From contig JAUVAR010000002.1 of assembly GCA_030591625.1 (NCBI GenBank), forward strand, positions 1 to 42,948: a DNA stretch of 42,948 nt. Direction: 5' to 3'. The notes under the pieces were generated by a model. That model saw only the letters and a list, made by a program, of their open reading frames with translations, did no database searches and was not told the origin of the DNA. The DNA comes from Candidatus Zixiibacteriota bacterium. GTDB taxonomy: Bacteria; Zixibacteria; MSB-5A5; GN15; FEB-12. The position numbers were made by a program, and so were the translations under genes. Numbering within the stretch: the first letter of the stretch is position 1; each line of letters begins with the position of its first letter. This document shows positions 3,650-40,947 of this stretch, one piece after another.

Positions 3650-3730
3650 AATGAATCCTTTCAAGATTCTATAACAATTATTTAAGAGATTATACAGGTT
3701 AGCTGGCCGAATAGCCGATAAGTTCCTTTT

Positions 3731-4852: not shown

Positions 4853-5385
4853 TTAGACTTCCTGTCAAATGTTGTTTCAACAGCTTTTTCAAGGATATTT
4901 ATAGCAGTTGGATCACCAAGTCCTTTGAGAGCCAAGCCTTTATAATAAAGAGCTTTACCTTCTCTGGGTTTGATCTTAAGAACTGACTCAGTTAATTCCA
5001 AAGCTTTTGCATAGTCGCCAAGACTAATTTTGATTCTGGCTAAGAGTAATTTCAGGCGTGATGATTTTGGAGCTTTTTCAATGCCTGTGCTTGCTTGAGA
5101 TTCTGCGGCATGGGTGTCACCCCTTACCAAATTTATTTTACTTAAGAAGTAATAGGCATCCGGGTTCGAAATATCACATAAAATTAGTGAGTCAAGAAAC
5201 GCTTTCGCTTCATTGTATGCACCATCCCGGAATGAAATTTTAGCAGACCTTAATAGCTGTCTGCAAATTTTCTTATTTTTACGTCTCGCATCTTTAGCGC
5301 TAGCATCATCTTGAGAAAATGCAAAGGATGGCAGCAAAAACGAACCGATAGAAATTGTTAGAACAATTAAGACAATTCTTCGCAT
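4849..5385 (-). CDS. Exported TPR-repeat protein
   Basis: 178-aa ORF with a signal peptide (IVLIVLTISIGSFLLPSFAFS). TPR-like helices are present (AYYFLSKINLVRGD, ALYYKGLALKGLGD). The start shares one base with the upstream stop (TGATG). Confidence 0.7.
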   Translation of the reverse strand: MRRIVLIVLTISIGSFLLPSFAFSQDDASAKDARRKNKKICRQLLRSAKISFRDGAYNEAKAFLDSLILCDISNPDAYYFLSKINLVRGDTHAAESQASTGIEKAPKSSRLKLLLARIKISLGDYAKALELTESVLKIKPREGKALYYKGLALKGLGDPTAINILEKAVETTFDRKSN

Positions 5386-9590: not shown

Positions 9591-9614
9591 TGACATCGGA
9601 AGGATTGCTATAGT

Positions 9615-12983: not shown

Positions 12984-13025
12984 AGAGATTCTTGCGTACC
13001 TGTATAGATGACTCAGAGGAGACCG

Positions 13026-14516
13026 ATGATACAATTTGATTTAATGAAACGAACATCTAAAGCTTTGCTTATTCCGTTATTACTCATTGCGATAATTGTA
13101 ATAATAGCGTCGAGCAGCAGCCAGGCCGAAACGTTCACTCTTGAACAGGCACTTGACATTGCATTCCAAAATTCCCCTACAATGAAAAATGCAGGTTGGA
13201 ATTTAGAGATTTCTCAACATAATCTTAATGCCCAGAAAGCATCACTGAAGTCGCAATTCTCGCTGAACGTCACACCGTTTTCGTGGGACAGAGGAACATC
13301 CTTTGATCCAACAACTTCTCAATATACAATAAGAGAAACCAAATCTTCCTCTGCCCGTTTTAACATTTCACAACCAATCAAATGGACTGATGGGACACTA
13401 ACTGTTTCTGAATCTATCAACTGGCAGGAAACATCTGACTCTTATTCCGGCCGCAACGACGTTACAAACTACTTAAGTTCGTTGGAACTAAGGTTCTCAC
13501 AACCAATTTTTACTTATAACCGAACCAAGATGCGGTTGAGTGAGCTTGAGCTTTCATTAGAGAATTCACAATTGAATTTTGCTTTGCAAAAACTGCAAAT
13601 TGAACGTTCAGTGACACAGGATTTCCTCGGCCTCTACCATCAATTTGAAAGTGTTAAAATTTCTCAGGAAGAATCGACCAACGCCAACGTAAGTTACGAG
13701 ATTATCTCAAACAAAGTTGAAGCGGGCATTTCTGCTCGCGAGGAACTATTTCAGGCCGATCTCACCAAAGCTAACTCGCAGGCGAACCTTGACAATAGTC
13801 GCAATCAGTATGAAAACTCATCGGACAATTTCAAACTCGCACTGGGACTTGATCTGAATATTGATGTTGAAATTGCCGCCAAACTTGAACAGGAGATTGC
13901 GAATGTTAATCTTTCTGAGGCGATCAATCATGGGCTGAAGCATAGAATGGAATTGCGTCAAAAAGATATCGATATACAGAATGCGTTATTTAATCTTACT
14001 CGTACCGGCGCTCAAAATGAGTTCTTCGGAACTCTTAATATGTCATGGGGTTTAACCGGAACCGATTCAAGCTACAAGGATATTTTTGACTCACCGTCCA
14101 AAGATCGAGGGGTTGCAATTTCATTTGATATACCTCTATTCGATTGGGGCGAGAAGAAACATCGCATGGAAGCGAGTGAGTTGGAAATTGAATCAGCTCG
14201 CCTTTCCGCCGAAGAACAACAACGCCAGATCATTCTGGAAATCAGACAGGCGTATCGCAATCTCGTCTATCAGGAATCACAAATAGCCATTGCGGATAAA
14301 AATGTAGAAAACGCACGCCGGACTTATGAACTGAATTTGGAAAGATATAAAAGTGGTGACCTTTCGTCTAAAGATATCGCTTTCTATCAAACACAACTTT
14401 CTCAGCAACGACTGAGTAAAGTCCAGGCGTTAATAAATTATAAAATAGCCCTGCTTGATCTGAAGATACGATCCCTTTGGGATTTCAGCACCGGCAAGGC
14501 GGTGCTCGAACTGTAA
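13026..14516 (+). CDS. TolC-family outer-membrane efflux protein
   Basis: ORF 13008-14516. I prefer the ATG at 13026, which is preceded by AGGAGA. It has a signal peptide. 'FTLEQALDIAFQNSPTMKNA' is a typical TolC/OEP start, and the coiled-coil/beta repeat is duplicated. Confidence 0.85.
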   Translation: MIQFDLMKRTSKALLIPLLLIAIIVIIASSSSQAETFTLEQALDIAFQNSPTMKNAGWNLEISQHNLNAQKASLKSQFSLNVTPFSWDRGTSFDPTTSQYTIRETKSSSARFNISQPIKWTDGTLTVSESINWQETSDSYSGRNDVTNYLSSLELRFSQPIFTYNRTKMRLSELELSLENSQLNFALQKLQIERSVTQDFLGLYHQFESVKISQEESTNANVSYEIISNKVEAGISAREELFQADLTKANSQANLDNSRNQYENSSDNFKLALGLDLNIDVEIAAKLEQEIANVNLSEAINHGLKHRMELRQKDIDIQNALFNLTRTGAQNEFFGTLNMSWGLTGTDSSYKDIFDSPSKDRGVAISFDIPLFDWGEKKHRMEASELEIESARLSAEEQQRQIILEIRQAYRNLVYQESQIAIADKNVENARRTYELNLERYKSGDLSSKDIAFYQTQLSQQRLSKVQALINYKIALLDLKIRSLWDFSTGKAVLEL

Positions 14517-14528
14517 CAGGAGATTTCA

Positions 14529-15587
14529 ATGATAAACCGATTAGCAATAATCACCCTTGGCATTTGCGCCCTCTTTGTAGTAGGGTGTGAAGATGATGGC
14601 CCTGACCTGGATATTGAAGCATCTATTCCTGTCCGGGTGGATTCGGTCGCACTTAAACCGATTATGGAATTTGCATTTGCAACGGGAACGGTCAAGGCGG
14701 TCAAAGAAGCGACGCTTAGCGCACAGCAGCCGGGCTATTACCGTCTTTTGAATAACCCACGTACCGGCAAAGCGTTTGCAATGGGTGATGAAGTTAAGAC
14801 TGGTGAAATGATTGTAAGGCTGGTGAATCAGGAATTTGAAAACCAAATCGGCTTTGAATCGAAGAAACTAAATTTTGATATCTCCGAACGTGAATTTATT
14901 AAACAAAAATCGCTGTACGAAAAAGGTGGAATCACCCAACGTGAGTTGATCGACTCTGAACGTTCGTTCATCGATGCTCGTTATGGTTTAGACAATGCCA
15001 AGCTGTCACTCGATAAACTCAAGATCAAGTCTCCATTCAATGGAATCATCGTTGACCTTCCATTTTATAGTGCCAATCAACTGGTAGAATCGAACGCCCT
15101 CATTGTACAAGTTATGGACTACTCTCGTCTTTATACCGAAGTAACACTTCCGGGTAAAGAGATGGAACGAGTGAAGCGTAATCAGGAAGCCCTCATTACA
15201 AATTATGCGCACCCTGAGGATACACTCAATGGTTTTGTGTCGCAAGTCTCACCTGCACTCGATCCTGAGAGCCGTATGTTTAAACTCGGAATTGAAATTA
15301 ACAATGACTCTCTCCTTTTGAGACCGGGGATGTTTGTTAAGGCAGACATCATTGTTGACTCACGTGATTCGACCCTTGTTATCCCGAAAGATATTATTTT
15401 GGAACGTCGCGGTAATAAGACTGTCTTTGTTGTTGAAGCAGGTGTTGCCCAGGAACGAATATTACGTCTGGGCCTATCGAATCAAAAAGAAGTGGAAGTC
15501 CTTGATGGACTTGAACACAATGATCGTCTGGTCGTTGAGGGATTCGAGACCCTCCGCCCTCGCTCTAAAGTAAAGATCACTAAATAG
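14529..15587 (+). CDS. Efflux RND periplasmic adaptor (membrane fusion protein), lipoprotein
   Basis: AGGAG precedes the ATG. Lipobox 'LFVVGCED'. It has an HlyD/MFP-like lipoyl and beta-barrel pattern ('IKSPFNGIIVDL', 'RPGMFVKADI'). Confidence 0.85.
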   Translation: MINRLAIITLGICALFVVGCEDDGPDLDIEASIPVRVDSVALKPIMEFAFATGTVKAVKEATLSAQQPGYYRLLNNPRTGKAFAMGDEVKTGEMIVRLVNQEFENQIGFESKKLNFDISEREFIKQKSLYEKGGITQRELIDSERSFIDARYGLDNAKLSLDKLKIKSPFNGIIVDLPFYSANQLVESNALIVQVMDYSRLYTEVTLPGKEMERVKRNQEALITNYAHPEDTLNGFVSQVSPALDPESRMFKLGIEINNDSLLLRPGMFVKADIIVDSRDSTLVIPKDIILERRGNKTVFVVEAGVAQERILRLGLSNQKEVEVLDGLEHNDRLVVEGFETLRPRSKVKITK

Positions 15588-15608
15588 AACTGCATCAGGT
15601 AGAATACT

Positions 15609-18600
15609 ATGTTTAGACTGGCCCGCTTTTCTGTAAAATATCCTACTACTGTTCTAATGATGATCTTAGCAATCGGTTTGCTTGGATACATTTCGTTCAC
15701 GCGACTTGGAGTTGATCTTCTTCCGGACCTGAATAACCCAAGATTATTTATTGAAGTTAATGCGGGTGAAAAACCTCCTGCTGAAATGGAACAACAATAT
15801 GTAACCGACCTTGAGGCTGTTGCTGTCAGGGGAAGTAAAGTTGAAAACGTATCGTCGATTTCACGAATAGGCAAAGCTCTTATTACAGTTGAGTACTCCT
15901 GGGATGCCGACATGGATGAGGCGTTTCTTGATCTGCAAAAATCAATAGCCGACTTCACTCAAGGTTCTGATGCCGACGAAGTTAGTGTAAGTCAACTTGA
16001 TCCCAACGCAGTTCCTATTTTGATTGCAACGTTTGCTCATCCCGAGATTGATGACCTTGACCTGCTCAGACAAACTGCGGAAAATATAATTCAGAATGAA
16101 CTGATTCGTCTGCCTGGTGTGGCAGGTGTTGATGTTGTTGGCAGTCGGGTGCGTGAAGTTGAAGTAAGGACTGATGCATTCACCCTTGAAGCTTACGGTC
16201 TCACTCTTGATGAATTGGCAGGCGCGATCGAACGTACCAATCGGAATATGACCGGTGGTTCTATAATCGAAATGGGTCGTCGATATATGATTCGCGGTGT
16301 AGGCGAACTGACCAGCCGTGAAGACTTGGAAGATATCATTGTAACATACAAAACACCTGCCGTTTCAAGAGGCTTAGGTGAACAGTTAAATAGTGAGCGG
16401 GTGCCGGTATATCTGCGTGAGGTTGCAACTGTTGAATTTGTTCTTAGTGAACCAGAAAACATTGTTCGTTCGAACGGACGTCAGTGTCTTGCGCTCGAAA
16501 TATTCAAAGAAGCACGATACAACACTATAGATGCAGCCGAGACAGCTCGTAAAAGACTTGATGAACTGCACGCTTCACTATCTGGATATGAAATTGATAT
16601 TATTCAGGATCAATCAAAATTTATTGATGCAGCTATAACAGAAGTTGAACAGACCGGTTTGGCCGGGGTCCTTCTTGCTATTATGATTCTGTTTGTTTTC
16701 CTGCGACGTATTGGTGTAACGGCAATCATAAGTATAGCGATTCCGATTTCCGTCATTGCTACTTTCAACCTGATGTACTTCAATGGCCTGTCGTTGAACA
16801 TCATGACACTTGGAGGACTCGCACTTGGCGCGGGCATGCTTGTTGATAACGCTATTGTTGTTATGGAGAATATTTTCAGACACCTTGAGTCAGGTAAATC
16901 AATTACTGAGGCTGCAATACATGGCGCGGGTGAAGTTGGCGGAGCGATTACGAGTTCAACACTTACAACAATTGTTGTTTTCCTTCCGATTGTATATCTG
17001 CATGGTGCTGCCGGTGAACTCTTCCGCGAGCAGGCCTGGACAGTTGCTTATTCGCTGATCTCATCATTATTTGTTGCACTAATCGTAATTCCAATGCTCT
17101 GCTCAAGAATGCTCAAGGATAAAAAAGCCAAAACAATTTCATCCGTTCAGTTTACAACCTACGGTAATTTTCTTAAGACCGTTATCGCCAAAAAAGGTGT
17201 TGTTGCATTTTCCGCCGCAATGCTCGTCTTGACCGCTGCATTTATTGTACCGATGGTCGGTAGTGAGTTCATGCCCCAAACTGAGCAGGGAGAGATGTTT
17301 GTTCATTTGACTTTACCGGAAGGAACTTCACTTGAACGCACAGAAGGAACAGTACGGAACATTGAAGCAATGATAGGGCAGAAATATTCTTCTTTTATCA
17401 GTAAGATATATTCTAAAGTTGGACCGACCAGCAATAACTCAGGCTCGGCTGTTGAACTAACAGATGACAATTATGCAGTCATTCATCTTGTGCTTACAGA
17501 AGCTGGTTCCGGGGCCACACATTCGCTTGTAGCTGGACTTGACGCAGAACTTAAAAACATTCCGGATGCCGAGACACGGATATCGCTTCAACAAACAGCT
17601 CTCAAGACGACGCTTGGAACAACAACCGCACCTCTCGTTGTCGAGATAAAGGGCAAAGATTTAGATGTCTTGCAGTCTTTATCGGAAGAAGTCAAACTGA
17701 CTCTTGAGTCTATTGAGCATCTTACTAATGTTGAGACGAGTTTTCGCGATGGACGCCCCGAGATCAATATTATGGTTGATCGCACAGTTGCCTCGCAGTT
17801 CTCACTTGATGCCGACAAGGTTGGTAATGATCTAAGAGCGTTGCTTTCGGGGCGTGACGCCGGACAACTTCAATACCAGGGAGATTATGCCGATATAAAG
17901 CTACGACGCCCAGAGGTTTCTTTAAGCGAACTTAACTCTATTATAATAGAAGCGCCGGGCGGACGTCAGGTCCGACTTGATGAAATCGCACGATTGATAC
18001 CATCAGTTTCAACACGAGAGATATCTCGCAACAATCAAATTAGAATTGCAAGCGTGAGTGCTCATTTGACATCGGATGAAGCGTTTGATAAAACGGCTGC
18101 AACAGTTCGTGATGCGATATCAAAAATAACGATACCACCAGAATATTCATTTGAAATCACCGGTGAAGAAAAAATGCGTCGCGAAGCGTTTGGTAATCTC
18201 AAGTTCGCTTTGTTGCTTGCAATTATACTCGTTTATATGGTTATGGCTGCACAGTTTGAATCGCTCCTGCATCCCTTTGTAATATTGCTGACTATTCCGC
18301 TCGCAGGAGTTGGCGCTGTGCTAATTCTTTTTGTGATGGGACTGCCCTTCAATGTTATGTCTTTCATTGGAATAATCATGCTTGCAGGTATAGCTGTTAA
18401 TGATTCAATTATTCTGGTGGACAGGATAAATCAGAACCGAAGGAATGGACTGGCTCTTATCGATGCAATCGTTGATGCCGGTCAGACTCGTATTCGTCCG
18501 ATTGTTATGACATCGGTAACAACAATTCTCGCACTACTTCCTCTTACAATTGGAATTGGTGAAGGAGCAGCGCTTCGTGCTCCTATGGCTCTTGCAGTTA

Positions 18601-18713
18601 TTGGTGGACTTGTTACATCAACTGCTCTTACTCTTATTGTTATACCAGCTGTTTATCATCTTATAGCTGGACGCTCTGCAATCAGTAACAGGATAACAAC
18701 CTCCGAACAATGA
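15609..18713 (+). CDS. RND efflux permease (AcrB/CzcA superfamily), RND1
   Basis: 1034 aa with 12-TM/2-loop organisation. TM4 reads 'GMLVDNAIVVMENI' and TM11 reads 'RIRPIVMTSVTT'. The stop overlaps the next start (ATGA). Confidence 0.92.
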   Translation: MFRLARFSVKYPTTVLMMILAIGLLGYISFTRLGVDLLPDLNNPRLFIEVNAGEKPPAEMEQQYVTDLEAVAVRGSKVENVSSISRIGKALITVEYSWDADMDEAFLDLQKSIADFTQGSDADEVSVSQLDPNAVPILIATFAHPEIDDLDLLRQTAENIIQNELIRLPGVAGVDVVGSRVREVEVRTDAFTLEAYGLTLDELAGAIERTNRNMTGGSIIEMGRRYMIRGVGELTSREDLEDIIVTYKTPAVSRGLGEQLNSERVPVYLREVATVEFVLSEPENIVRSNGRQCLALEIFKEARYNTIDAAETARKRLDELHASLSGYEIDIIQDQSKFIDAAITEVEQTGLAGVLLAIMILFVFLRRIGVTAIISIAIPISVIATFNLMYFNGLSLNIMTLGGLALGAGMLVDNAIVVMENIFRHLESGKSITEAAIHGAGEVGGAITSSTLTTIVVFLPIVYLHGAAGELFREQAWTVAYSLISSLFVALIVIPMLCSRMLKDKKAKTISSVQFTTYGNFLKTVIAKKGVVAFSAAMLVLTAAFIVPMVGSEFMPQTEQGEMFVHLTLPEGTSLERTEGTVRNIEAMIGQKYSSFISKIYSKVGPTSNNSGSAVELTDDNYAVIHLVLTEAGSGATHSLVAGLDAELKNIPDAETRISLQQTALKTTLGTTTAPLVVEIKGKDLDVLQSLSEEVKLTLESIEHLTNVETSFRDGRPEINIMVDRTVASQFSLDADKVGNDLRALLSGRDAGQLQYQGDYADIKLRRPEVSLSELNSIIIEAPGGRQVRLDEIARLIPSVSTREISRNNQIRIASVSAHLTSDEAFDKTAATVRDAISKITIPPEYSFEITGEEKMRREAFGNLKFALLLAIILVYMVMAAQFESLLHPFVILLTIPLAGVGAVLILFVMGLPFNVMSFIGIIMLAGIAVNDSIILVDRINQNRRNGLALIDAIVDAGQTRIRPIVMTSVTTILALLPLTIGIGEGAALRAPMALAVIGGLVTSTALTLIVIPAVYHLIAGRSAISNRITTSEQ

Positions 18714-21700
18714 TCGCCTTTATCATAAGACGTCCTGTGCTGGTGGCTATGATAATAGCCGCACTCTGTTTGCTGGGCATTGTTGCGTATGATCGCCTGC
18801 CGGTTGAAAACCAGCCCTCAATCGAACTACCTATGTTAATTGTAGTGGTTGGTGGTGCCCGCGACTCTGACCCATCTTATCTTGAACGACATGCGGTAGT
18901 ACCACTTGAGAGTGCAATAGCCGGACTTGAAGATATTGAGTCGATAGAATCATACATCAGTCGTAACCGAACAACTGTCTTTGTTTATTATCAACAATCA
19001 ACTGATGTTCGTTATGCCTACCTCAAGCTTCAACAGCGAGTAAAGGCTGTTCAACAGGAGATGGGCAACAGTTTCTTTTTCTCTGTCTGGAAAATTGATA
19101 CAGAACAATTAGCAAACAGGTTTATGACACTCGAAGCGCGTGGCGCAGGTGATGTTGATCAGATACGAAACGTAATTGACCGTAAGGTAACTGCTGAACT
19201 CCAAAATATCGACGGTGTCGCTAATGTCGCAATCTATGGCGGGCGTGAACGTTCGGTTGAAATTCTTCTTGATGAAACAGCAATGGCTGCACATAAGCTG
19301 ACTTCGGCACAAATCAGAAACGCTATCGCATCGGGCAATCAGGACCGTCAGTTCCTTGGCCATGTAACTGATGGCCGACGTAAGCATGCAGTAAATTTGG
19401 GGTCCGATCTTACATCCGTAGAAAATCTTGGTAATATTGTTCTGAAGGAACAAGGGCCGGTTCTGCTTAAGCATGTTGCCGAGGTATTAGATGGTGCGTC
19501 GGAAGAGACTTCGATTTCACGAGTCAACGGCATGGAGTCAGTTTCGGTTTCAATAATTCGTGAACGACAGGCGAACTTATTGGAACTGGCCGAACGAACT
19601 CATGAACAGATTGAAAAACTTAATGAACAACTCAAGATTGATGGTATCGAGCTAATCGTAAAAGAAGATCAAGCTGAAGCGATCTCAAAAAATATTGACA
19701 CGATCAAAGAGCTTGCACTAATCGGTTCAATTTTGGCAATAATTATACTATGGCTTTTCCTTCGCAACTTTGCTTTGGTGCTTGTTGTTGCCGGAGCAAT
19801 TCCGATATCTGTTTTGATAGCACTCAATTTCTTTTATGTCTATGACCTGACAATCAATACGCTCTCGCTTTTTGGAATCGCTATTGCCATTGGTATGCTG
19901 TTGGATAATAGTGTTGTTGTTTTAGAATCGATTCACAGACAGATAGGACTGGGCAAAAATCCGTACGATGCGGTCATCATCGGGGCCGGCGAAGTTTGGC
20001 GTCCTGTCATGGCTTCCACTATGACTACAGTTGCGGTTTTCCTTCCGTTTATTTTTACCGACAACTTTTTGATACAACTGTTGGGACGTCATATTGGAAT
20101 TTCGATTGTCTCGACTCTGCTTGTATCACTCGGTGTTGCCTTTTTAATTATTCCCGCTTTCGCATACAGATTTTTGTCTAAGAAAAGTGATTCGTCAATT
20201 GCCGACATGAACATCATTCCCCGCTCAAACCGAATGATGCAAATTTATACTCTATTCTTAAAATCATGTCTGCGTTTCCCTGCTCGTACTTCGATTATTA
20301 GTGTCGTTGTGCTTTTCATGAGTATCATAATTTGTCTCGCGGTCAGTATCAATTCTCCAACTGAGGTAGAATCAGAGATGTTCAATCTCTATGCTACTCT
20401 TCCAAGCGGGACAACTCTTGACGTTGCTGACATACAGTCTGTAAAGATGGATGAACGAATTTCTGACATTGCTGAGTTAAAAGAACGTGCGGCTCAGATT
20501 GAAGAAGATCAAATCACTTTCTCGTTTGAATTGCTTGAAGATTACGAAGATATTGATGATCGTGACTTGAGTGCGGTTAAGTCTGCAATTATCAATAGTC
20601 TCGAAGATGGTTTTCCAAGAATAGATTTTAATTATGAACAGCCACTCTCCGATTCTCGTTATCAAGGAGGCGGTGGTGGAGGCATGGGCGGAGGAGGCGG
20701 TGATGAACGCGCCTTTGGACGTTTGCTCGGTATCGGTGTAGCCGAAGAAAAAGTTATTATACGTGGACAGGATATCGGTTTGCTCGCAACTGTCGCCGAT
20801 GACATTCAGTACAACATAGATAATATGGAAACAGTGCGTCGTTCGCGCCAAAGTATCGCTTCTCCAAGACCAGGTATTGATTTGGTGTTTAGTAAAACTG
20901 CAGTTGGTTATTTTGGTATTACTCCACAGGCGATAATTGCAGAACTATCGAATTTTCAGAGTGAAGTTTCTTCCGGCGTAAGCTTACAGGATGGCGACGA
21001 AAAAATATCGGTCATCCTCAAGAATGAAGAACTTGAGGAACGAAATTCTGATGATTTAAGAATACTGCAAATTCCTTCGAATGTTGGCGGTACTGTTCCG
21101 ATCAGTCAATTAGCTCGGTTAGTTTATACTTCATCACTTTCCGGGATTAACAGAATCAATCAGGAAAAAGAGGTTGAAGTAACTTATACTTTTGAAGATG
21201 ACATCACTGGATCAAAACAACTATTAGATGATGCAAGAGCATCGATTGATGATGTCATAGACGATATCATTCCTCCACCGGGAATTTCAATTGAAGTTGT
21301 TCATGATGAACTTGATCTTTCAGAATTTTATTTCCTTATCTTTGCAGCAATTGTTTTGATCTTCATGATTTTAGCTTCTGCTTTTGAATCATTGATTCAA
21401 CCTCTGGTCATGATGTTCACAATACCGCTTGCAACTGTTGGTGCCTTTTGGGGTCTTATTCTTACCGGAAATTCTATCATGAACGCCAACGCTTTGATAG
21501 GATTCATAATTTTGCTCGGTGTGATTGTGAACAACGGTATTATTCTGATTGACTACTCACGTTTGCTTCAGAAAAGAAATTATCGTCCTACGCGCGCTTT
21601 GCTGATGGCCGGACAGGCTCGCTTGCGTCCAATTTTGATAACTACTATTACTTCAGTTCTGGCGATGATTCCTCTGGCGATGGGCAACACCGACTATGTA

Positions 21701-23443
21701 GCAAAAATTGGGGCACCATTTGCAATTACGGTTATTGGCGGTCTTTCAATCGGAACACTGTTCACACTCTTATTGATTCCTACTTTTTCTTATGGCATGC
21801 ACACCGCCTTGGTATGGTGGCATAAGCTATCATTAAGAATCAAACTGATTCAGTTAGTTGCGTTGATTGGAGCTTCATTTATGATTTATAATGGTGTTGA
21901 TTCAACTCTCTGGCAATTTGCGAATCTGATCGCAGTATTTGGAATTGTACCTGGCATTACATATTTCAGCATGACATCACTAAGACGTGCATCATCAAAA
22001 ATAATTCCTGAGACTGATCCTATCACCATCAAAATCCACAACGTTGTAAAGTTCTATGACGGCTTCTCTCGTTTCGTTAGAGAATGGCACAAAGCTGATA
22101 GACGCAATGAACACTTACAGGCAAGAGGAGAACGGTTGCCGGGCAGAAAGACGATTGATCAAATCTGGCAACTTCCACTTTGGCTTTTCCATCTATACTT
22201 TGCGTATATCCATGCCGAAAGTGGTTTCTGGATTCTGATTTTCGCTATCACTGCATATATCCATACTGTTTTGTTAGGCAGATTTATTCTTGGTATCTTT
22301 AAGAGTAACGATAATCATTCAATCAAAAGTGCAAAATGGTACCAACGCCTGCTCACTCTTATCGTCTGGATTGCCCCGGGTGCAAATATTGGATGGTGGC
22401 TCTTCGGTCATGATGCTATCGCTTCGGCAATTGTCTTTGGTACACCGTGGTATCTGGCTGTTCTAATATGGCGAACTTCGGAAATACTATATCGCAACAA
22501 AACCGATATCATGCGTCTTACCGGCAGGTTCAAAAGAACCCGCAAACTTTTTTATCGCATGGTAAAAGCTATTCCAATAATTGGTAAGAAGAAGATTCCG
22601 TTCCGTGCTCTTGATCAAGTATCATTGGAAATCGGAAGCGGCATGTTTGGACTTGTTGGTCCTAACGGTGCAGGTAAAACTACCTTGATGCGAGTTATAT
22701 GTGGAATCCTCGAACAATCGCAGGGTGTAGTGACCGTTAATGGACTTGATCTAAATGAGTACCGCGAAGAAATGCAGGCATTGATCGGATATCTTCCGCA
22801 GGAGTTTGGTACTTATGAAAATATGACGGCGTATCAATTCCTTGATTACCAGGCGATTCTTAAAGGCATCACCGAACCAACAAAACGCAAAGAGATTGTT
22901 GAACGTGCAATCAAATCAGTGCACCTGGGAGAAAAACGGAATACTAAGATAAAAGCATTCTCCGGTGGTATGAAACAACGCGTTGGTATTGCACAAACAT
23001 TATTGCATTTGCCTCGCATTCTTGTTGTTGATGAACCAACGGCCGGACTCGATCCACGCGAGCGAATAAGATTCCGTAATTTACTTGCCGATCTTGCTCG
23101 TGACAGAGTTGTTATTTTTTCTACTCACATAATTGAAGATATATCAAGTTCGTGTAATCGTCTCGCCGTCTTAACCGATGGAAAGGTCAGATTCCTCGGC
23201 ACACCTGTTGAAATGGTTAAGCTGACCGAAGGCTATGTATGGCAAGCAACTGTGAGTGAGGAGTTCTTCGAAACTTTCCGTACAAAAGCAAGAGTTGTGC
23301 ATCATATGCGTGATGGTGATGGAATAAAATTACGAGTACTCTCAAAAGAGAAACCACTGGAACAGGCAAAAGCTGTGACGCCGTCGCTTGAGGATTCATA
23401 CCTTTGGTTGCTCGATACTATGGAGACCAGAGATGACAACTAA
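18710..23443 (+). CDS. RND efflux permease (RND2) fused to extra TM helices and a C-terminal ABC ATPase domain (NBD2)
   Basis: 1577-aa uninterrupted ORF. aa 1-~1030 is an RND permease (TM4 '[13 protein letters not shown]', TM11 '[12 protein letters not shown]'). aa ~1040-1095 holds 2 hydrophobic helices. aa 1105-1118, '[14 protein letters not shown]', is the NBD strand beta1. aa 1119-1295 is a hydrophobic insertion. From aa 1296 the NBD continues with Walker A [9 protein letters not shown] (22658-22684), [19 protein letters not shown] and STH. Confidence 0.85.
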   Translation: [1577 protein letters not shown]

Positions 23444-33681: not shown

Positions 33682-34767
33682 ATGGAAATAAATTACCCTC
33701 AAGAACGGCGTAAAAGCCGTGCAGTCAAAATCGGAGATGTCCTTATAGGGGGCGGATTCCCAATAGCGATTCAGTCAATGACCACCGCTGACACCCGTGA
33801 TGTAGCTGCTACTATCGCTCAAATCAACGAACTTTTTGAAGTTGGTGCAGATATTGTCAGAATTTCTGTACTCAATCATGACGCTTCAGATTCGCTCTCT
33901 AAGATCCGAGCAGGCGTAACGGGACCAATTGTTGCCGATATTCATTTCCAATACAAGCTCGCTCTCAAAGCGATTGAAGCCGGATTCGATAAAATTAGAA
34001 TCAACCCTGGTAACATCGGAGCCGAATGGAAAGTACGAGAAGTCACTAAAGCGGCCAAAGATGCCGGTGTACCGATCAGAGTTGGTGTGAACTCAGGTTC
34101 ACTGCCCGAAGATATTTTGAAAAAGTATGGCCACGATGACCCTCGTGCCTTCTGCGAAGCTGCAATGCGAGAAATTGAAGTTCTCGAAGATTGCGGATTT
34201 ACTGATACTGTGATCTCTGTCAAATCTTCCAACACCGTAACAGCTTACTGGGCCTACCAGATGCTTGCACAGAAATGCGACTACCCATTGCATCTGGGAA
34301 TCACCGAAGCGGGCATACTTGAGGCTGGAACGATTAAATCATCAATTGGAATTGGTGCAATGTTGTTGACCGGCATCGGTGACACTATTCGAGTTTCACT
34401 CACTGCTGACCCGATTCATGAAGTTCGTGTTGCTAAACAGATTCTAAAATCGTGTGCGCTTAAAGATGAAGGGGTGGAAGTTATCTCCTGTCCTACTTGC
34501 GGACGATGCCAGATCGATATGATCCCACTCGCCGAATCAATTTCTGAAAAGACAAAACATATCAAGACACCTCTTAAAGTTGCAGTCATGGGTTGTGCGG
34601 TCAATGGACCGGGCGAAGCTGCCGCTGCCGATGTTGGTATCGCCGGAGGTGATGGCAAAGGGATACTCATCAAGAAGGGTGAGATTGTCAAACGTATGAC
34701 CGAAGCAGAACTTGAATCGACATTGCTTGCAGAGATCGAAGCGATGACCGGCGAGAAGACAGGATAA
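33682..34767 (+). CDS. ispG: 4-hydroxy-3-methylbut-2-en-1-yl diphosphate synthase (IspG/GcpE)
   Basis: 361 aa with 'RKSRAVKIGDVLIGGGFPIAIQSMT', the cluster cysteines 'ISCPTCGRC' and 'VMGCAVNGPGE'. Confidence 0.93.
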   Translation: MEINYPQERRKSRAVKIGDVLIGGGFPIAIQSMTTADTRDVAATIAQINELFEVGADIVRISVLNHDASDSLSKIRAGVTGPIVADIHFQYKLALKAIEAGFDKIRINPGNIGAEWKVREVTKAAKDAGVPIRVGVNSGSLPEDILKKYGHDDPRAFCEAAMREIEVLEDCGFTDTVISVKSSNTVTAYWAYQMLAQKCDYPLHLGITEAGILEAGTIKSSIGIGAMLLTGIGDTIRVSLTADPIHEVRVAKQILKSCALKDEGVEVISCPTCGRCQIDMIPLAESISEKTKHIKTPLKVAVMGCAVNGPGEAAAADVGIAGGDGKGILIKKGEIVKRMTEAELESTLLAEIEAMTGEKTG

Positions 34768-34835: not shown

Positions 34836-34869
34836 AAACCGGGCTGGCCATATTGGCCATACCCGGTTT
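34836..34869. terminator. Strong bidirectional rho-independent terminator (ispG / porin gene, convergent)
   Basis: AAACCGGG (34836-34843) pairs with CCCGGTTT (34862-34869). An inner TGGCCA/TGGCCA stem closes on a 3-nt loop. T-runs lie on both strands. Confidence 0.75.
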
Positions 34870-34899: not shown

Positions 34900-35334
34900 T
34901 TAGAAACTTATTTCCACACCTGTACGAATTCCTGTCAACGAACCAGTTTCTGATCCATATACCCAGGCTGCTGCATCGGTTAGTTCGGCATAATCAAAGT
35001 CTGCCGTCAGCATCATACTTGGAGAAACTCTGTATGCAGCTCTTACTGCAAGTATCGATAACTTGTAATTCAAATCAGAGTATGTGTGCATCTCATCAAA
35101 GAAAAAGTCCTGATGGGTCAGTTCTGGATCGCCAAGATCATTAACCGCCAGATGTTCAACCGATGGCATAACTACTTCGTCATAACCTCCACTTGATTGA
35201 TTATATGTGAAGCTTGTTGTCAGAGAAAGTTTCTGAGTCGGCATCACTGTAATCGAACCAAACAGATTGTGCGATGAGTTTCTGTAGTCGGTCATCGAAT
35301 AGATCGAGCCATAATGTTTCGCTGCGCCACTCAC
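34900..35334 (-). CDS. C-terminal segment of outer-membrane beta-barrel (ends in aromatic beta-signal ...GVEISF)
   Basis: It is in the same frame as 35359-37092 and separated from it only by a TGA (35359-35361) plus 8 sense codons. The track 'start' is a GTG. It has an alternating beta-strand pattern and a terminal Phe. Confidence 0.65.
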   Translation of the reverse strand: MSGAAKHYGSIYSMTDYRNSSHNLFGSITVMPTQKLSLTTSFTYNQSSGGYDEVVMPSVEHLAVNDLGDPELTHQDFFFDEMHTYSDLNYKLSILAVRAAYRVSPSMMLTADFDYAELTDAAAWVYGSETGSLTGIRTGVEISF

Positions 35335-35358
35335 GGTGTCGCGGAATATATGGCCACC

Positions 35359-37092
35359 TCAGCCATCAAAGAGGGCAATAGTGACCGGTCCCCTATTCTT
35401 GATAAACGAGTAAGTATAACCAACCGTGAAGATAGCCTTTTGACTTGGACTATAATTTATCCCAAGGTTAGGCCGAATAGAAAAACGTTCAACATCGAGA
35501 GAATCAAGATCGTCGTTGAATTCATAATAACCTTTTATACCAGTGTTAATAGAAGTCTTAAGCGATGGTCTGAAGGTTGTCACTATATCGATCTCGTGAC
35601 GATCGGTTGCTTCGGTAGTAATTTTCTGATAGCGAAGATCTTCGCGTTGGAAATACTGGAACTGGAATCCTGCTGAACCTATGTCTGTCAGTGGTTCGAG
35701 CAATTTGGAACCATCAGCTTCAAACAGACCACGCGCAGAAGTGAATGGATCGCTTGTCTTCTCCCAACGATACTTAATCTTCTGAGAAAATTGTCGACCC
35801 GCCAGATACTTCAAATTTGCTTGACCAGAGAACTTATTGGTTGTGGCATTATCGCCCGGACCGAAGAAATCGTAGCGATCAATTCTATCATATCCGGCAA
35901 GTAACGAGAGCGTTGTACTCTTATCAAGGCGTGTAATCAACTCTATACTCGCTTCACCATTGAGCCTGTCAAGAGATGAATAGCGAATAAAATCAAAGTC
36001 AAACGTAGCCGAGTCAGCCGCACCCTCTCGATAATCTGGAAGATCGATAAGTGGATTATCAGACGTTACCCTATAGGCAGTAAGTCGTCCTACCAACCTT
36101 GAACTTTTTGACAGCCTGGTAGTTGTGCTCAAGGCACCGTTGATTGAGTTGGCATCAAGGTTCGCAGTCTTGTTGCGGGTCTTGGAATGACCGAACGAGC
36201 CAACAAATCTTGTTTTTCCAATATCACCTTTGACTCGGAATTTCTGCCAAATTTTCCGTTTCTCGGGAAAGACCGAATATGCAGCTGTTGTATCGTCGTA
36301 AAGAACTCTTGATCCAAATTCATCTGTAGCTCCCCCTGTCACAGGATGAGCTGCATTATCATAATATGCCGTCGGTGCATCAGCATGTGACTTGAAAGTT
36401 CGCATACCAACTTTTAGACCAAGATCATATTTACCAGCCTTACCTTCAAGTCCAGCCTCGACTGAATGTGTCTGTCTGTTAACAGTAGCACCCTGAGAGG
36501 TCAGATGACAACTGAAACAATGGTCTGAAGCTATCTGCTGCTCTTCACCCTTCTTTATGATTGAACGATGGCTTACCAGAAGACGCAAATCGTTCTGGCG
36601 GGAGAGCAAGAGATTGAACTGACTCGAAATTTCACTGCGAGTATAATTGTAATCAGCTCCCGGATCGAGAATCTCGTGAGTGAGCATCTTACCACCCGGT
36701 ACAGTCGATAACCACTCACGTGCAGCAATATTTTCAAGCAAATCCTGGCCGGTCTGCCGAATCATCGACCTGAAATTGATCTCAGTTGAGAATTTATCTG
36801 CCAAATTATAATTGAATCGTCCCAATACATTATCATCATCGAAATATTGGACATTTAGATCAAGACGGGAATCATCTTGCCAACGCCAGTAGTGAATCTT
36901 TCCTTCGGGAAGGAATTCATCATTACCTTTTTTGTATTCTCCAACTTTCTTCGTGTAGCCGTCGTAATCAGTAGAGTGTCCTCCAAGCCAGAGTTTGACA
37001 CCCTGATCCGAAACATCTTCTTGAGCCGATACAGCCGCACCAATCGCCAGGAGCAAAACGATGCTTAGCAGTAAACTTAGTAATCTTAACAT
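35359..37092 (-). CDS. Outer-membrane beta-barrel, MtrB/PioB-like decahaem-associated porin (N-terminal 577 aa), contains one CXXCH
   Basis: Signal peptide 'LLSLLLSIVLLLAIGAAVSAQ', followed by long amphipathic beta-strand repeats. It starts 9 nt after the decahaem cytochrome gene. CFSCH lies at aa 192-196 (nt 36505-36519). Its end, '...ALFDG', has no beta-signal. Confidence 0.65.
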   Translation of the reverse strand: MLRLLSLLLSIVLLLAIGAAVSAQEDVSDQGVKLWLGGHSTDYDGYTKKVGEYKKGNDEFLPEGKIHYWRWQDDSRLDLNVQYFDDDNVLGRFNYNLADKFSTEINFRSMIRQTGQDLLENIAAREWLSTVPGGKMLTHEILDPGADYNYTRSEISSQFNLLLSRQNDLRLLVSHRSIIKKGEEQQIASDHCFSCHLTSQGATVNRQTHSVEAGLEGKAGKYDLGLKVGMRTFKSHADAPTAYYDNAAHPVTGGATDEFGSRVLYDDTTAAYSVFPEKRKIWQKFRVKGDIGKTRFVGSFGHSKTRNKTANLDANSINGALSTTTRLSKSSRLVGRLTAYRVTSDNPLIDLPDYREGAADSATFDFDFIRYSSLDRLNGEASIELITRLDKSTTLSLLAGYDRIDRYDFFGPGDNATTNKFSGQANLKYLAGRQFSQKIKYRWEKTSDPFTSARGLFEADGSKLLEPLTDIGSAGFQFQYFQREDLRYQKITTEATDRHEIDIVTTFRPSLKTSINTGIKGYYEFNDDLDSLDVERFSIRPNLGINYSPSQKAIFTVGYTYSFIKNRGPVTIALFDG

Positions 37093-37101
37093 TGCTTCCT
37101 C

Positions 37102-38043
37102 CTACCTTGTTAATGCGTTGCCACCGGTTGGAATAGCCTGAGAAGGCATATCGGAACCGTGAATTTGAGAGTGACACTGAGTACACTTAGTTAACATACC
37201 TTTTTTCCAACCATCTGTAGTTGACATCGTCGTGCGGTCGTCAGCAAGTGGCGGAGTAAACTCACCATCCTGCCCTTCTACCGACGCATGGAAATGCATC
37301 GCATGACAATTCAAACATAACGCTGGTTCATTGTATCTAAGCAACTTGTCGGCTACTGTACCATGCGGTGCATGGCAGATGTTGCAATCTTCGTTTACCG
37401 GATCATGCTCGTAAACAAATGGTCCTTCCTGCTCCATATGGCAGCTAAGACAAAGTTCACGACCTGTATTATCAGCCGTTAACTTAGCAGGTTCACCATG
37501 AACACCATGACAATCTGCACATTCGAGTTTACCTTCCACGATCGGATGATGTGACGGCAAATACGTAGCAGCTTTTACTTCAATATGACAGCTGTAGCAA
37601 AGTGCCTCGCCTGATTCTTTTGCCGTTGAACCGCCATGAGTAGTATGGCAGTCTGAACAAGTTGCTCCGCCACCATTATGATCAGAGAACTCCCAATTGT
37701 CTAATATACCATCCGAATGACAGTTCAAGCATAGAAGATCGGCCTGAAACTGGTCAGTATTGGCAGGATTAAAGATCAATTCGGGATCGCCTGTCGAAGC
37801 ATGTTCTACTGCCGCTCCATGGCAAGACTCACAGACACTATGCGCCCGATCCGGCATTGCGGAAATGGTAGTACCATGTGAAGTCTTGCCGTAAGAGGCG
37901 ACAATCTCCTCATGGCAGTCGGCACAAAGTGCACCTGCAGTCTGCTCTGCCCGGATAGCAGAAGACGCAAGGGCTGCAATTAACAGCATACATGTTACGA
38001 CTACCGTGAAGAAATTTCGTTTACTTACAATTCTTGTTTGCAT
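37102..38043 (-). CDS. Periplasmic decahaem cytochrome c, MtrA/DmsE/PioA-like
   Basis: ORF 37102-38112. I prefer the ATG at 38041-38043 (MQTRIVSKRNFFTVVVTCMLLIAALASSA), which is preceded by GGAAGGGA. It has exactly 10 CXXCH motifs in ~310 aa, and the C-terminus reads 'CTQCHSQIHGS'. Confidence 0.8.
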   Translation of the reverse strand: MQTRIVSKRNFFTVVVTCMLLIAALASSAIRAEQTAGALCADCHEEIVASYGKTSHGTTISAMPDRAHSVCESCHGAAVEHASTGDPELIFNPANTDQFQADLLCLNCHSDGILDNWEFSDHNGGGATCSDCHTTHGGSTAKESGEALCYSCHIEVKAATYLPSHHPIVEGKLECADCHGVHGEPAKLTADNTGRELCLSCHMEQEGPFVYEHDPVNEDCNICHAPHGTVADKLLRYNEPALCLNCHAMHFHASVEGQDGEFTPPLADDRTTMSTTDGWKKGMLTKCTQCHSQIHGSDMPSQAIPTGGNALTR

Positions 38044-38103
38044 GCGGTTGAATCCCTTCCTCTTGGATATAAGTTCTATTACTAAATTCATATTCGTAAT
38101 GTT

Positions 38104-38117
38104 AGTTAGCACTAACT
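38104..38117. promoter_or_regulatory. 14-bp palindrome between tetR and the decahaem gene (candidate TetR operator)
   Basis: AGTTAGCACTAACT has 6-bp arms, AGTTAG and CTAACT, around a 2-nt centre. It lies 61 nt upstream of the preferred cytochrome start. Confidence 0.3.
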
Positions 38118-38138
38118 CACTTTATTAAGAAAAAAATA

Positions 38139-38735
38139 CTACTTTTTTAATCCTCTCGCATAAATCGGCACATTATTGGCAATAACTTTTGAGGGGTCAT
38201 ATACTTTCCCCTGCATTCCCCGCCATAGGGTTTTGCCCAGAGCACAGTCGAAAACCATACCTGTAAAGCAGCGGGCTGTAATATCATTATTCTTCTTTAA
38301 TATCTTTCCTTCACTATAAAGCCTGTCGAGTTGCTCCCTGAGAAACTTTTGATAGCTGCCTCTGATCTGATTATAGATCTGCCCTGCTTTATCATGACCG
38401 CTCAAAGCTGAGTACAACAACAAACGATACATATCGGATCGTTTGGTAAAGAAAGAAATAATGTGTTTAGCCAAACCTTTCAAAAGAGCTTCTACATCAC
38501 TTTCATTTCGCAGTTCATCAAAAACTGCCTCATAATCGAGCTTCGATTTTAAAGACTCAAGCACCGCTATATATATATCTTCCTTGGAATTGAAATGTTT
38601 GTAAACCGCCGGCTCAGTTATTCCACAAACTGCGCCAATCGACTTAACCGTCACGCGATCATAGCCATCAGAACTAAAGAGATGAGTGCTCTCTTCAATT
38701 ATTTGTATTTTTCTGTCAGTTACTTTATTTATCAT
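38139..38735 (-). CDS. TetR/AcrR-family transcriptional regulator
   Basis: 198 aa with an N-terminal HTH, 'FSSDGYDRVTVKSIGAVCGITEPAVYKHFNSKEDIY'. Confidence 0.88.
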   Translation of the reverse strand: MINKVTDRKIQIIEESTHLFSSDGYDRVTVKSIGAVCGITEPAVYKHFNSKEDIYIAVLESLKSKLDYEAVFDELRNESDVEALLKGLAKHIISFFTKRSDMYRLLLYSALSGHDKAGQIYNQIRGSYQKFLREQLDRLYSEGKILKKNNDITARCFTGMVFDCALGKTLWRGMQGKVYDPSKVIANNVPIYARGLKK

Positions 38736-38842
38736 AACAACTCAGGTTAGGACTCACTAACTATAGAATAGTATTCATATCGGCAGGTCAAGTCAAAAAT
38801 GCTGGATTTTGTGATATTTTTCACCATTTTATTTTACGCGCT

Positions 38843-38871: not shown

Positions 38872-40551
38872 CTATTTCGACTCCGCTGGCTTTGGGGCAA
38901 CCATAACCGACTTCTCACGCTCAACAGAAACCAAACCAGGCTTTGCTTTGCGAGGTTTACGAACATATTTCCTTTGAGTATAGATAACCGAGACGAGCGA
39001 ATCATTGCGTGCCTTACTATGAAATGCAGCAATTGCCGCAGTCTCTTCGATCTCTCGTTTTGATGGCTCAAAAGTTTTGCTCGGAAACTTAATCACAACA
39101 TGTGACCCGGGGCATTGTCCGGCATGAAACCATAATTCGTAAGGCTTGGCAAAATCAAAGGTGGTGCGATCATTATCGGCACCATCTTTCCCGACAAAAA
39201 TTGTCAGTCCGGTTGAAAGCTGATGCTCACGGTATGGCAGTCTCGGTTGCGAATCTCGTTTTGTCGAAATTCTGGGAAGAAGTGATTCTATCTCCTCGCG
39301 ATACTGTTCGCTGGCACTGTCAAAATTCATATCAAGGGCGGCATAAATCTCTTCAAATCGAATCAATTCAGCTTTTGATATTTCCAATCTTCGTTCCAAA
39401 AGCTCAAGCCCCTCGCGTCCCTTGCGGTACCGTTTGAAATATGATTCTACATTGTCAGTCGGTGACAAAACAGGATTAAGCTTGATAGTAACTTCACCAC
39501 CCGAGGCATCATACATATTGACAAGCGTAACAGTTTCATCACCGCGCTTAAATTCATTTAAGTTAACTTTCAACAATTCACCATTGATACGAAACAGTTC
39601 AAAGTCAGCCGCCTCGACAATATCATTCCCCAAATGTTCTACCCTGCGAGACAATTTCTTTATCGAACGCTTAAGGGCCGATGTGATAACTTTTCGTTCA
39701 TCAGTTTCTGAAACAACCGCTCGGCGACGGGCAGTCATTGCGGCTACAGCGAACGAAAGTGTTTTGTATTTTTCGGGCTGTTGCTCTATAGTTTTTAATC
39801 GGAACGGATAAACTTCGACCCCGGACTGACGTTCGTACAAGTAACCGGTCGGACCGGTAGTGAAGCGTGATACGATCTCTTTTATATCAGCTACTAATTT
39901 TATAGCAGAAGCATCATCCAACTCATCTTCATCAAGATTAATTTCGCTTCTTCGGAGCAGTTCAAAAACAATCGTCTTGTTAAAGCCACCCAGCGTTCTG
40001 GTCAGAGCATTTACAAAAGTTATCTGACGGTCACACTCCTGAGCAATTTCTAAAATCTTTGCATCGTCAATATTATTTGGATCTACCAAATGTTCTGGTT
40101 GTGGTGGAGGCGCATACGCTTCTTTCTGATCGTACGTTTTCTTTCTTAGCGTTGCTAACCGGCATGAGTTTTCATCAAGCAGCCAAAGATTTCCATTAGG
40201 CCCCATCGCTTCAACAACAAGTGTCCGACGACCGGCATCTGTCGATAAATTTATTTTGAAAATACGATCATTTGCATACTGTTCGACCGATTCAACAACG
40301 CTCTCTTCTAGTGCAAAGACAGGCCACGGTTTTTCATTTGTAGTTGGCATAACCTTGGAGGCAGGCACAAGGAAACAACCTGCACCGGCCGGATGATAAA
40401 CAAAGCCAAGGGCGTTCAACGAACGATCCGACTTGATAAAGAAGAACGCCGATCGTTCTTTTTTGTAGAACTCGGTACGTACAATCTTACCGCCAACAAT
40501 CGTTTCCTTAAGTTCGGCAACTAATGCCTGTATGTGTAGTGCAGTTTGCAT
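38872..40551 (-). CDS. rqcH: NFACT-family ribosome quality-control protein (RqcH / FbpA-like)
   Basis: ORF 38872-40608. I prefer the ATG at 40549-40551 (MQTALHIQALVAELKETIVGGKI...). The NFACT-N region includes 'ANDRIF'. It has a coiled-coil middle and a C-terminal NFACT-R/DUF814-like 'YELWFHAGQCPGSHVVIK'. Confidence 0.8.
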   Translation of the reverse strand: MQTALHIQALVAELKETIVGGKIVRTEFYKKERSAFFFIKSDRSLNALGFVYHPAGAGCFLVPASKVMPTTNEKPWPVFALEESVVESVEQYANDRIFKINLSTDAGRRTLVVEAMGPNGNLWLLDENSCRLATLRKKTYDQKEAYAPPPQPEHLVDPNNIDDAKILEIAQECDRQITFVNALTRTLGGFNKTIVFELLRRSEINLDEDELDDASAIKLVADIKEIVSRFTTGPTGYLYERQSGVEVYPFRLKTIEQQPEKYKTLSFAVAAMTARRRAVVSETDERKVITSALKRSIKKLSRRVEHLGNDIVEAADFELFRINGELLKVNLNEFKRGDETVTLVNMYDASGGEVTIKLNPVLSPTDNVESYFKRYRKGREGLELLERRLEISKAELIRFEEIYAALDMNFDSASEQYREEIESLLPRISTKRDSQPRLPYREHQLSTGLTIFVGKDGADNDRTTFDFAKPYELWFHAGQCPGSHVVIKFPSKTFEPSKREIEETAAIAAFHSKARNDSLVSVIYTQRKYVRKPRKAKPGLVSVEREKSVMVAPKPAESK

Positions 40552-40947
40552 GCTTGGAATATATTCACGTTTTAAGTTAGTAACAAGAGCGCATTTTGTT
40601 TTGCGCAACTATTCAATGCTATCAATTTATCTCCTGTTAGGGGGAACCATAAATGACTCTGATTTGTTTTAGTAGATAGACAAAGGAATGTCCATTGTAC
40701 TATCACCTCGCTCTGGCGGAGTGGTTCATCCAGATGATCTGGTTCATCGTGAGTGACATCTTTAGAATTCTGCTCCGCCTACAACTCGGTTCACACTCAG
40801 AATAATACACTTGTCGCACTTTTTTTATTCAACTTTTTAGTCCTTAAACACGTCTAATATATACGCGTTCAAATGGAATGAACGCATTGGTACCCTTTTA
40901 GAGGGGGGAAGGTGAGAGCGGTAACTTCGTTCTTACCAAAATGAAAG

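Follow-up and report, generated by a model that had tools for sequence, protein, structure and literature searches.

A TetR-linked OmcK/OmcL-type decahaem-barrel pair, likely an outer-membrane electron conduit, in a Zixibacteria-like bacterium of a cold seep

Electron conduits of the outer membrane have a central place in metal cycling, methane-oxidising consortia and bioelectrochemistry, and to our knowledge the Mtr complex is the sole conduit with a solved structure. Here we describe a unit of three genes, for a TetR-family regulator, a ten-haem cytochrome and an outer-membrane barrel, on a stretch of 42,948 nucleotides (nt) of a contig from a cold seep metagenome (JAUVAR010000002.1, positions 1 to 42,948; this whole stretch is called the window below). 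The closest described systems are those of the OmcK/OmcL proteins. In Geobacter, GSU2203 is OmcK, and both GSU2203 and GSU2204 are up 2.4- to 2.7-fold with haematite (PMC4070692). Among the sulfate-reducing partners of anaerobic methanotrophic archaea (ANME), the OmcK/OmcL homologues of HotSeep-1 and Seep-SRB2 have been described as a putative porin:cytochrome conduit; HotSeep-1 OmcKL is expressed 4-fold above OetABI, and the third cytochrome gene is unusually absent (PMC10553843). We consider it likely that the window encodes a TetR-controlled, two-protein electron conduit of this OmcK/OmcL type in a Zixibacteria-like bacterium.

The two window proteins fall in the families of OmcK and OmcL, with scores that reach or come close to the NCBIfam cut-offs. 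The window pair also shares with OmcK/OmcL the gene order decahaem then barrel, a CXXCH motif and a selenocysteine (Sec)/Cys site in the barrel, and the bare two-gene pair with no third cytochrome alongside. It differs in coming from a Zixibacteria-like lineage and, from the Desulfuromonas thiophila locus, in having a dedicated TetR gene and palindromic sites. A 2023 paper took OmcK as an extracellular cytochrome, whereas the window decahaem aligns end to end with MtrA, the in-barrel component. With MtrA-MtrB(-MtrC) of Shewanella (6R2Q) the unit has in common the adjacent genes, the ten-haem MtrA homology and MtrB as best structural match, but it is without an MtrC/OmcA-type partner. MtrB is not known to have a c-haem motif or Sec, unlike the window barrel, and the N-terminal CXXC motif of MtrB is absent from the window barrel, where the only Cys are the CXXCH pair. 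PioAB and MtoAB are likewise two-gene systems of decahaem and barrel with no surface cytochrome gene; unlike the window pair, they are assigned to the MtrB/PioB family in the strict sense, and their barrels are not known to bear haem. The Cyc2 fused cytochrome-porins of Fe(II) oxidisers resemble the window barrel in bearing one c-type haem, a likeness of working and not of family. In Cyc2 the CXXCH is close to the N-terminus, the barrel is much smaller and no decahaem partner is known, in contrast to the window CXXCH at residue 192 of a 26-strand-type barrel with a decahaem gene adjacent, so that the protein does not qualify as a Cyc2. The regulatory gene also has a parallel in Geobacter, where a transcription-factor gene heads the porin-cytochrome operon orfR-ombB-omaB-omcB, as in the window unit (PMC4282303). 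The regulator OrfR belongs to the TetR family. The orfR-type clusters differ in coding for OmcB, a cytochrome of its own at the outer surface, and for a periplasmic cytochrome with 8 haems, and their porins have no reported haem or Sec.

The three genes of the unit are all on the minus strand:

38735..38139, minus strand: TetR-family regulator gene, 198 amino acids (aa), assigned by PF00440
38043..37102, minus strand: decahaem c-type cytochrome gene, 313 aa with a signal peptide, OmcK/GSU2203-like and MtrA/DmsE-type by its NF041028 and TIGR03508 scores and its match to 6R2Q_A
37092..34900, minus strand: barrel gene, 730 codons plus stop with a predicted Sec codon at 578, OmcL/GSU2204-like by NF041027 and fold

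A gap of 9 nt (GAGGAAGCA) separates the cytochrome gene from the barrel gene, whose frame runs from ATG at 37092 to TAA at 34902..34900 with one interruption, a TGA. A first-pass annotation made from the sequence had described a TetR gene directly upstream, a cytochrome of about 313 aa with exactly 10 CXXCH motifs and a C-terminal CTQCHSQIHGS, and, starting 9 nt after it, a barrel with a signal peptide and a terminal ...ISF, and all of these features were found (the barrel ends in ...GVEISF). The barrel of about 730 aa that it proposed exists as a frame of 730 codons but not as one plain open reading frame (ORF), since codon 578 is an in-frame TGA and mechanical ORF calling yields two pieces, of 577 and 144 aa. 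In relatives, the three genes travel together as far as the fetched sequences reach: a 10-CXXCH ORF lies about 9 nt 5' of the barrel gene in nearly all relatives with flanking sequence, and in 47 of 63 related loci the decahaem gene is preceded, on its own strand, by a TetR homologue (mean identity 52%).

The ten CXXCH motifs of the cytochrome are at residues 40, 71, 105, 129, 149, 175, 198, 220, 243 and 287. Its best-scoring family is NF041028 (GSU2203 family decaheme), with 322.7 bits against a cut-off of 325 over residues 33-313, and it passes TIGR03508, the DmsE family model, with 211.6 bits (cut-off 192.2). Residues 39-302, with all ten haem motifs, align to MtrA (6R2Q chain A, Shewanella baltica Mtr complex) at E 3.9e-37. 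By these alignments the cytochrome is an MtrA homologue with ten predicted haems. The MtrA/DmsE-type assignment made earlier therefore stands, and the matches place the protein with the porin-conduit cytochromes and not with NrfB-type proteins unrelated to them.

The barrel was assigned to the partner family. It scores 522.7 bits (cut-off 350) against NF041027, 'GSU2204 family CXXCH-containing (seleno)protein', with residues 11-577 covering positions 2-580 of the 580 in the profile, which stops exactly at the TGA. Identity of the protein to its database relatives does not exceed about 49%. Against PF11854, the N-terminal part of the window barrel gave no hit and the C-terminal part reached 13.3 bits where 23 are needed (E 0.03), and TIGR03509 gave no hit to the window barrel either. 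Other members of NF041027 do pass the PF11854 gathering score and are collinear with it, namely P0249 (54.1 bits), P0312 (54.8 bits), P0233 (41.9 bits) and P0097 (30.1 bits). The window barrel is thus below the cut-offs of the MtrB/PioB models, and these four members of its family are above that of PF11854.

Structure models were used for residues 1-577 of the window barrel (AlphaFold 2) and for P0233, a full-length relative with Cys in place of Sec that scores 540 bits on NF041027. The window model has a mean predicted local distance difference test score (pLDDT) of 83.3, and its top Foldseek match is MtrB (6R2Q_B; E 8e-13, template modelling (TM) score 0.65); TonB-dependent receptors come next (2e-8, TM 0.3-0.45). 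For P0233 (pLDDT 85.9, predicted TM score 0.84), MtrB is again the top match in the PDB (E 1.3e-24, TM 0.67/0.75), with the next at 3.8e-9. The E-value lead of MtrB over the next PDB match is therefore 4 orders for the N-terminal part of the window barrel and 15 for P0233. The P0233 model has 26 long strands and one short strand that we assigned to a loop. Because intermediates pass PF11854 and MtrB is the top fold match, we read the barrel as a divergent MtrB/PioB relative; sequence comparison and models agree that the family is homologous to MtrB/PioB, with a predicted MtrB-like fold. The MtrAB-like porin-cytochrome reading of the first-pass annotation holds on both counts, the cytochrome resembling MtrA and the barrel fold being best matched by MtrB and not by a generic porin. 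Its likening of the pair to PioAB/MtoAB gives way to a more precise family, GSU2203/GSU2204 (OmcK/OmcL) by NCBIfam.

What sets this barrel apart is a set of elements within its own gene:

36519..36505, minus strand: CFSCH, a haem c attachment motif at barrel residues 192-196, invariant in relatives
35361..35359, minus strand: in-frame TGA, codon 578, in the context ALFDG-U-GGH, conserved in relatives
35314..35352, minus strand: conserved His581 and His593 in U-G-G-H ... K-H-Y-G-S, present in 93% and 100% of 46 C-terminal parts
35341..35325, minus strand: hairpin CGACAC-CGUGA-GUGGCG, like a selenocysteine insertion sequence (SECIS), beginning 17 nt past the UGA

Residues H191, C192, C195 and H196 are invariant across 69 sequences. 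As it carries CXXCH, the barrel is not expected to be a haem-free porin. The CFSCH cysteines are the only two Cys of the barrel protein, and both are needed for haem attachment; a Sec at position 578 would therefore be without an intramolecular thiol partner.

Evidence that the UGA is read as Sec came from comparison of related loci. We fetched 66 such loci from species-representative genomes, and the site is present in 63. The codon is TGA in all 63, followed by 140-165 in-frame codons and a barrel-type C-terminus; in the window, 152 codons follow and end in the same manner. The part after the TGA has a mean column identity of 49% (46 sequences), with the consensus U-[AG]-[GA]-H ... H-[YF]-G after the Sec codon. 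The hairpin consists of a 6-bp helix and a 5-nt loop holding GU (CGUGA or CGGUG). Its pairing holds in 91.7% of cells over 64 sequences, compared with 19-52% in slid registers, compensatory changes occur at 6/6 pairs (one pair is AU in 26, GC in 23, UA in 11 and CG in 3), and RNAalifold recovers the same 6-bp helix. The window copy has one A.G mismatch. Since shuffled versions of the 44-nt window segment that spans the UGA and the hairpin fold just as well, it is covariation and comparison that make the case for a SECIS; a search of Rfam found no family at the gathering score in the window and none at E up to 10 around the UGA. At the Sec column, Cys is present in three members: P0233, P0259 (encoded in a metagenome-assembled genome (MAG) of Acidobacteriota) and P0299 (Desulfuromonas thiophila). 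These Cys forms were found by exhaustive hidden Markov model (HMM) search, word-index searches having yielded short fragments only, and the MAFFT alignment of N- and C-terminal fragments was sound only when eight full-length relatives were included. Full-length members are 718-810 aa long, the Cys orthologues being continuous over 723-810 aa; others have Lys or Gly in the Sec column, and all keep the CXXCH. The family is listed as a selenoprotein family in a 2026 review (PMC13188914).

Two other readings of the codon have to be weighed against Sec. The TGA would be a genuine stop if the gene were a pseudogene or the assembly in error, leaving a barrel truncated at 577 aa and 152 codons untranslated. 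It is true that gene callers split the gene everywhere: the 100 closest database homologues are 429-597 aa long, nearly all about 570-590 aa and none full length, the complete ones all end at ...A-L-F-D-G, and only the Cys, Lys or Gly forms are full-length in public protein collections. The independent contigs of the source run, moreover, leave the TGA uncovered. A stop, however, would have to be the identical TGA in 63 of 63 loci of different genomes, each followed by a conserved frame that completes the barrel and ends in the C-terminal aromatic residue; it would ignore a downstream hairpin that covaries and Cys orthologues that read straight through, and truncation at 577 would remove the last five strands of the barrel. 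We give this explanation, already contradicted by the comparative data, almost no credence. A reassigned UGA (code 4 or 25), which would make the codon Trp or Gly instead of Sec, could draw on the Gly found at this column in some members. UGA terminates 8 other well-formed genes in the window, though, so that the standard code applies there; the conserved hairpin follows specifically the UGA of codon 578, and the family is curated as a selenoprotein. Reassignment was rejected on this stop-codon usage and is the least credible reading of all. Given the invariant TGA, the covarying hairpin, the conserved codons beyond it and the Cys in three members, our analyses indicate that the barrel gene carries a conserved, recoded UGA read as selenocysteine. 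In public protein collections, the family appears nearly throughout as a 'hypothetical protein' of about 575 aa plus an orphan fragment of 80-150 aa.

The C-terminus of an outer-membrane barrel ends in the periplasm, and topology was assigned by strand parity counted back from it. By parity, the periplasmic turns are all of 2-5 residues and the long loops all on the outer face, in both models. The CXXCH forms the turn of an extra-long hairpin with strands of 22-24 residues (169-191/196-219 in the window, 170-191/197-220 in P0233), while the Sec/Cys site falls in the loop of a second long hairpin (558-579/593-615 in P0233). In the models, CXXCH and Sec are thus both predicted on extracellular loops. 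The two hairpins are 14 strands apart in the 26-strand barrel, on roughly opposite walls. The first-pass annotation had stated that no outer-face cytochrome is encoded. This is true of the neighbourhood, as no further cytochrome gene adjoins the unit, but may be misleading, given that the barrel itself is predicted to be a monohaem c-type cytochrome and a selenoprotein, with its own haem and Sec on predicted extracellular loops.

From these data we propose how the unit may work. The TetR-cytochrome-barrel unit probably carries electrons across the outer membrane. The decahaem would sit inside the 26-strand barrel as in MtrAB, moving electrons between periplasm and surface, and the mature barrel would be a c-type cytochrome bearing a single haem and a single selenocysteine. 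The outer loops with haem and Sec would then be a surface redox site, in the role that a separate MtrC/OmcA-type cytochrome has in Shewanella. A bolder version, doubtful in our view, is that the barrel haem and the Sec come together at the outer end of the pore, straight over the final haem of the decahaem inside it, and form a natural haem-selenol or Sec-ligated haem centre at the surface. Such a centre would be the terminal site of electron exit or entry or a catalytic site, and would make a separate surface cytochrome unnecessary; if it exists, it would represent a kind of outer-membrane redox enzyme that has yet to be described.

The chief functional rival is a cell-surface reductase with a catalytic Sec, in which the decahaem would feed a haem/selenol site on the outer loops and the soluble or colloidal substrate would be, for instance, polysulfide, elemental sulfur, selenite, tellurite or some other metalloid. 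Where bacterial proteins contain Sec, it almost always serves as a catalytic redox residue, and here it is kept in 63 of 63 loci of the clade, stands beside conserved His residues with no free Cys to pair with, and is predicted, like the haem, on the outer face. The Geobacter ext porin-cytochrome cluster has been tied to selenite and tellurite reduction (PMC5877670) and includes the selenoprotein ExtKL (PMC13188914). Weighing on the other side, some members have Gly or Lys at the Sec column, and the neighbours of the unit are respiratory cytochromes and not enzymes of sulfur or selenium, so that we judge a reductase unlikely. A plain Fe(II)-oxidation conduit of the PioAB/MtoAB type, with the decahaem in a haem-free porin and no surface cytochrome needed, appears quite unlikely. 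Two genes, a decahaem of the MtrA/DmsE family and the lack of an adjoining MtrC/OmcA-type gene fit it, and Mtr-type conduits can run in either direction. The best family matches, however, are GSU2203/GSU2204 and not MtrB/PioB, the barrel is predicted to bear haem and Sec, and the expression data for the family come only from Geobacter on Fe(III) oxide and a syntrophic sulfate reducer for which electron uptake has been proposed. The leaning of the first-pass annotation towards iron oxidation is possible, with the gene count as its sole basis.

Several observations also weigh against the OmcK/OmcL-type conduit with a haem- and Sec-bearing barrel that we prefer. Conduit function and the content of haem and selenium are predicted from homology and gene context, and a literature search gave no paper in which an OmcK/OmcL family member is tested for function or for its content of haem or selenium. 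The window barrel itself is below the cut-offs of the MtrB/PioB models, and a profile of its N-terminal part found no PDB sequence at E up to 10. The strand count, which was 26 long strands in P0233, hinges on assigning one short DSSP strand, at residues 138-143 of P0233 and 132-141 of the window model, to a loop, and the topology of the Sec loop is taken from P0233, the window model covering residues 1-577. Where the Sec column holds Lys or Gly, the CXXCH is still present in the sequence, so Sec is not required for haem binding as such. No tRNA was found in the 43-kb window and no tRNA-Sec in the fetched flanks of 47 related loci, and no Sec-insertion genes were seen in the window. In the independent contigs of the source run, the gap that contains the TGA extends over 35048-35417. 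Three metatranscriptomes from the source study contained no sequence of the operon and were uninformative.

The regulator matches PF00440 (TetR_N) at 46.7 bits (cut-off 24; E 2.7e-12) over residues 12-58, and its conservation in the related loci marks the TetR gene as a partner of the cytochrome-barrel pair. Candidate control sites of the unit are as follows:

38768..38796, minus strand: promoter-like TTGACT-17-TACTAT, 5' of the TetR gene, a putative promoter by consensus match only (9/12 positions)
38747..38762, minus strand: operator-like site AGTTAGTG...CTAA, just 3' of the promoter-like site and ahead of the TetR start
38102..38119, minus strand: 18-bp near-palindrome TGAGTTAGTGCTAACTAA in the TetR-decahaem spacer, a candidate TetR operator
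34869..34836, minus strand: terminator-like hairpin with a U-rich tail, 31 nt past the barrel stop (-25.4 kcal/mol, z -5.0)

On the minus strand of the window AGTTAGTG has three copies, two of them inside the TetR-cytochrome-barrel unit. The near-palindrome TGAGTTAGTGCTAACTAA agrees at 16/18 positions with TTAGTTAGCGCTAACTAA, a perfect palindrome of the related locus L010. Palindromes of the TTAGT-N8-ACTAA type lie 5' of TetR in 24 of the 36 relatives examined, and similar ones lie in the TetR-cytochrome spacer in 11 of them. The TetR protein may bind these TTAGT...ACTAA-type palindromes and repress the operon until some signal comes. The TGAGTTAGTGCTAACTAA palindrome overlaps the GTG at 38112 that was mechanically called as the start of the cytochrome gene (336 aa). 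The ATG at 38043 is the likelier start, because GGAAGGG stands ahead of it and the resulting protein has a normal signal peptide. As for the 3' end, none of 200 shuffles folded as well as the hairpin at 34869..34836, which a simple terminator scan left unflagged.

The next gene past the barrel is ispG (33682-34767, plus strand), on the opposite strand, and an RqcH/NFACT-like gene is at 38872-40608 on the minus strand. The order RqcH-like, TetR, decahaem, barrel, ispG is common to the window and the related loci L018, L034 and L036. These three loci come from one chromosome of Zixibacteria and two MAGs, one of GN15 and the other unclassified, and in this sub-lineage the unit sits among housekeeping genes and not in a cytochrome island. 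In most relatives, by contrast with the window, the unit adjoins large multihaem cytochromes with 6 to 21 haems; the bare two-gene unit of the D. thiophila Cys form is without them. Sampled neighbours with 8, 11 or 21 haems end in a membrane domain like FdnI/cytochrome b556 (CbcL-like fusions), and a 6-haem one is NrfH-like. To judge from these domains, they are likely inner-membrane, quinol-linked entry points for electrons. The idea that they are the missing surface cytochromes was rejected, as FdnI/cytochrome b556-like and NrfH-like proteins belong to the inner membrane. Neighbours of this kind are found at L001:5332-10758, L030:6989-8947, L044:1409-4015, L002:5382-6893 and many other loci.

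A small 4-haem protein is encoded just 3' of the barrel gene at L044:8384-8938, and also in L045, L047, L049 and L055. It aligns, at 71 bits, to the C-terminal portion of the 'UshA-like (seleno)protein' family NF041198, and the window decahaem weakly matches the same region of NF041198. These matches hint at a link of a second selenoprotein family to these cytochrome domains.

The window has a further multihaem cluster, which the first-pass annotation called a 32-haem operon some 30 kb away. The cluster is there, at 1425-6650 on the minus strand, but its haem motifs are divided as 17 + 13 CXXCH between two proteins, one of 434 aa with 17 and one of 421 aa with 13 plus two CX3-4CH. Their genes flank three others, coding for a 276-aa unknown protein, a protein with a ResA-like thioredoxin fold and tetratricopeptide repeats (TPR) in which CXXC is replaced by WSPRS, and a TPR protein. 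An ORF of 146 aa at 7472-7035 (minus strand) has one CXXCH. The 17- and 13-haem proteins were considered as orthologues of the neighbour cytochromes of relatives and rejected, since only decahaem repeats match, at 27-36% identity. Elsewhere in the window, 8679-23443 (plus strand) holds a transport-type run of an ATP-binding cassette (ABC) ATPase, a 1122-aa protein without family match, a TolC-like outer-membrane factor and an adaptor of the resistance-nodulation-division (RND) type, followed by proteins of 1034 and 1577 aa.

The OmcK/OmcL type has a broad distribution: an exhaustive profile search gave 414 cluster representatives, and the type occurs in Zixibacteria and related lineages of the Fibrobacteres-Chlorobi-Bacteroidetes (FCB) group, in Acidobacteriota, in Desulfuromonadales and in seep sulfate reducers. 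Homologues are reportedly highly expressed in one ANME consortium (PMC10553843). The window pair is a Zixibacteria-like addition to the catalogued GSU2203/GSU2204 family. What makes it interesting is not so much the layout of two genes as the barrel with its predicted haem and selenium, which automatic annotation splits: since gene callers cut at the Sec codon almost everywhere, surveys of called proteins can miss both the barrel and its dependence on selenium. Should haem and Sec truly lie on the outer face, the family would be an example of how two proteins can form a conduit with no MtrC-type partner, and extracellular electron transfer would be tied to selenium supply.

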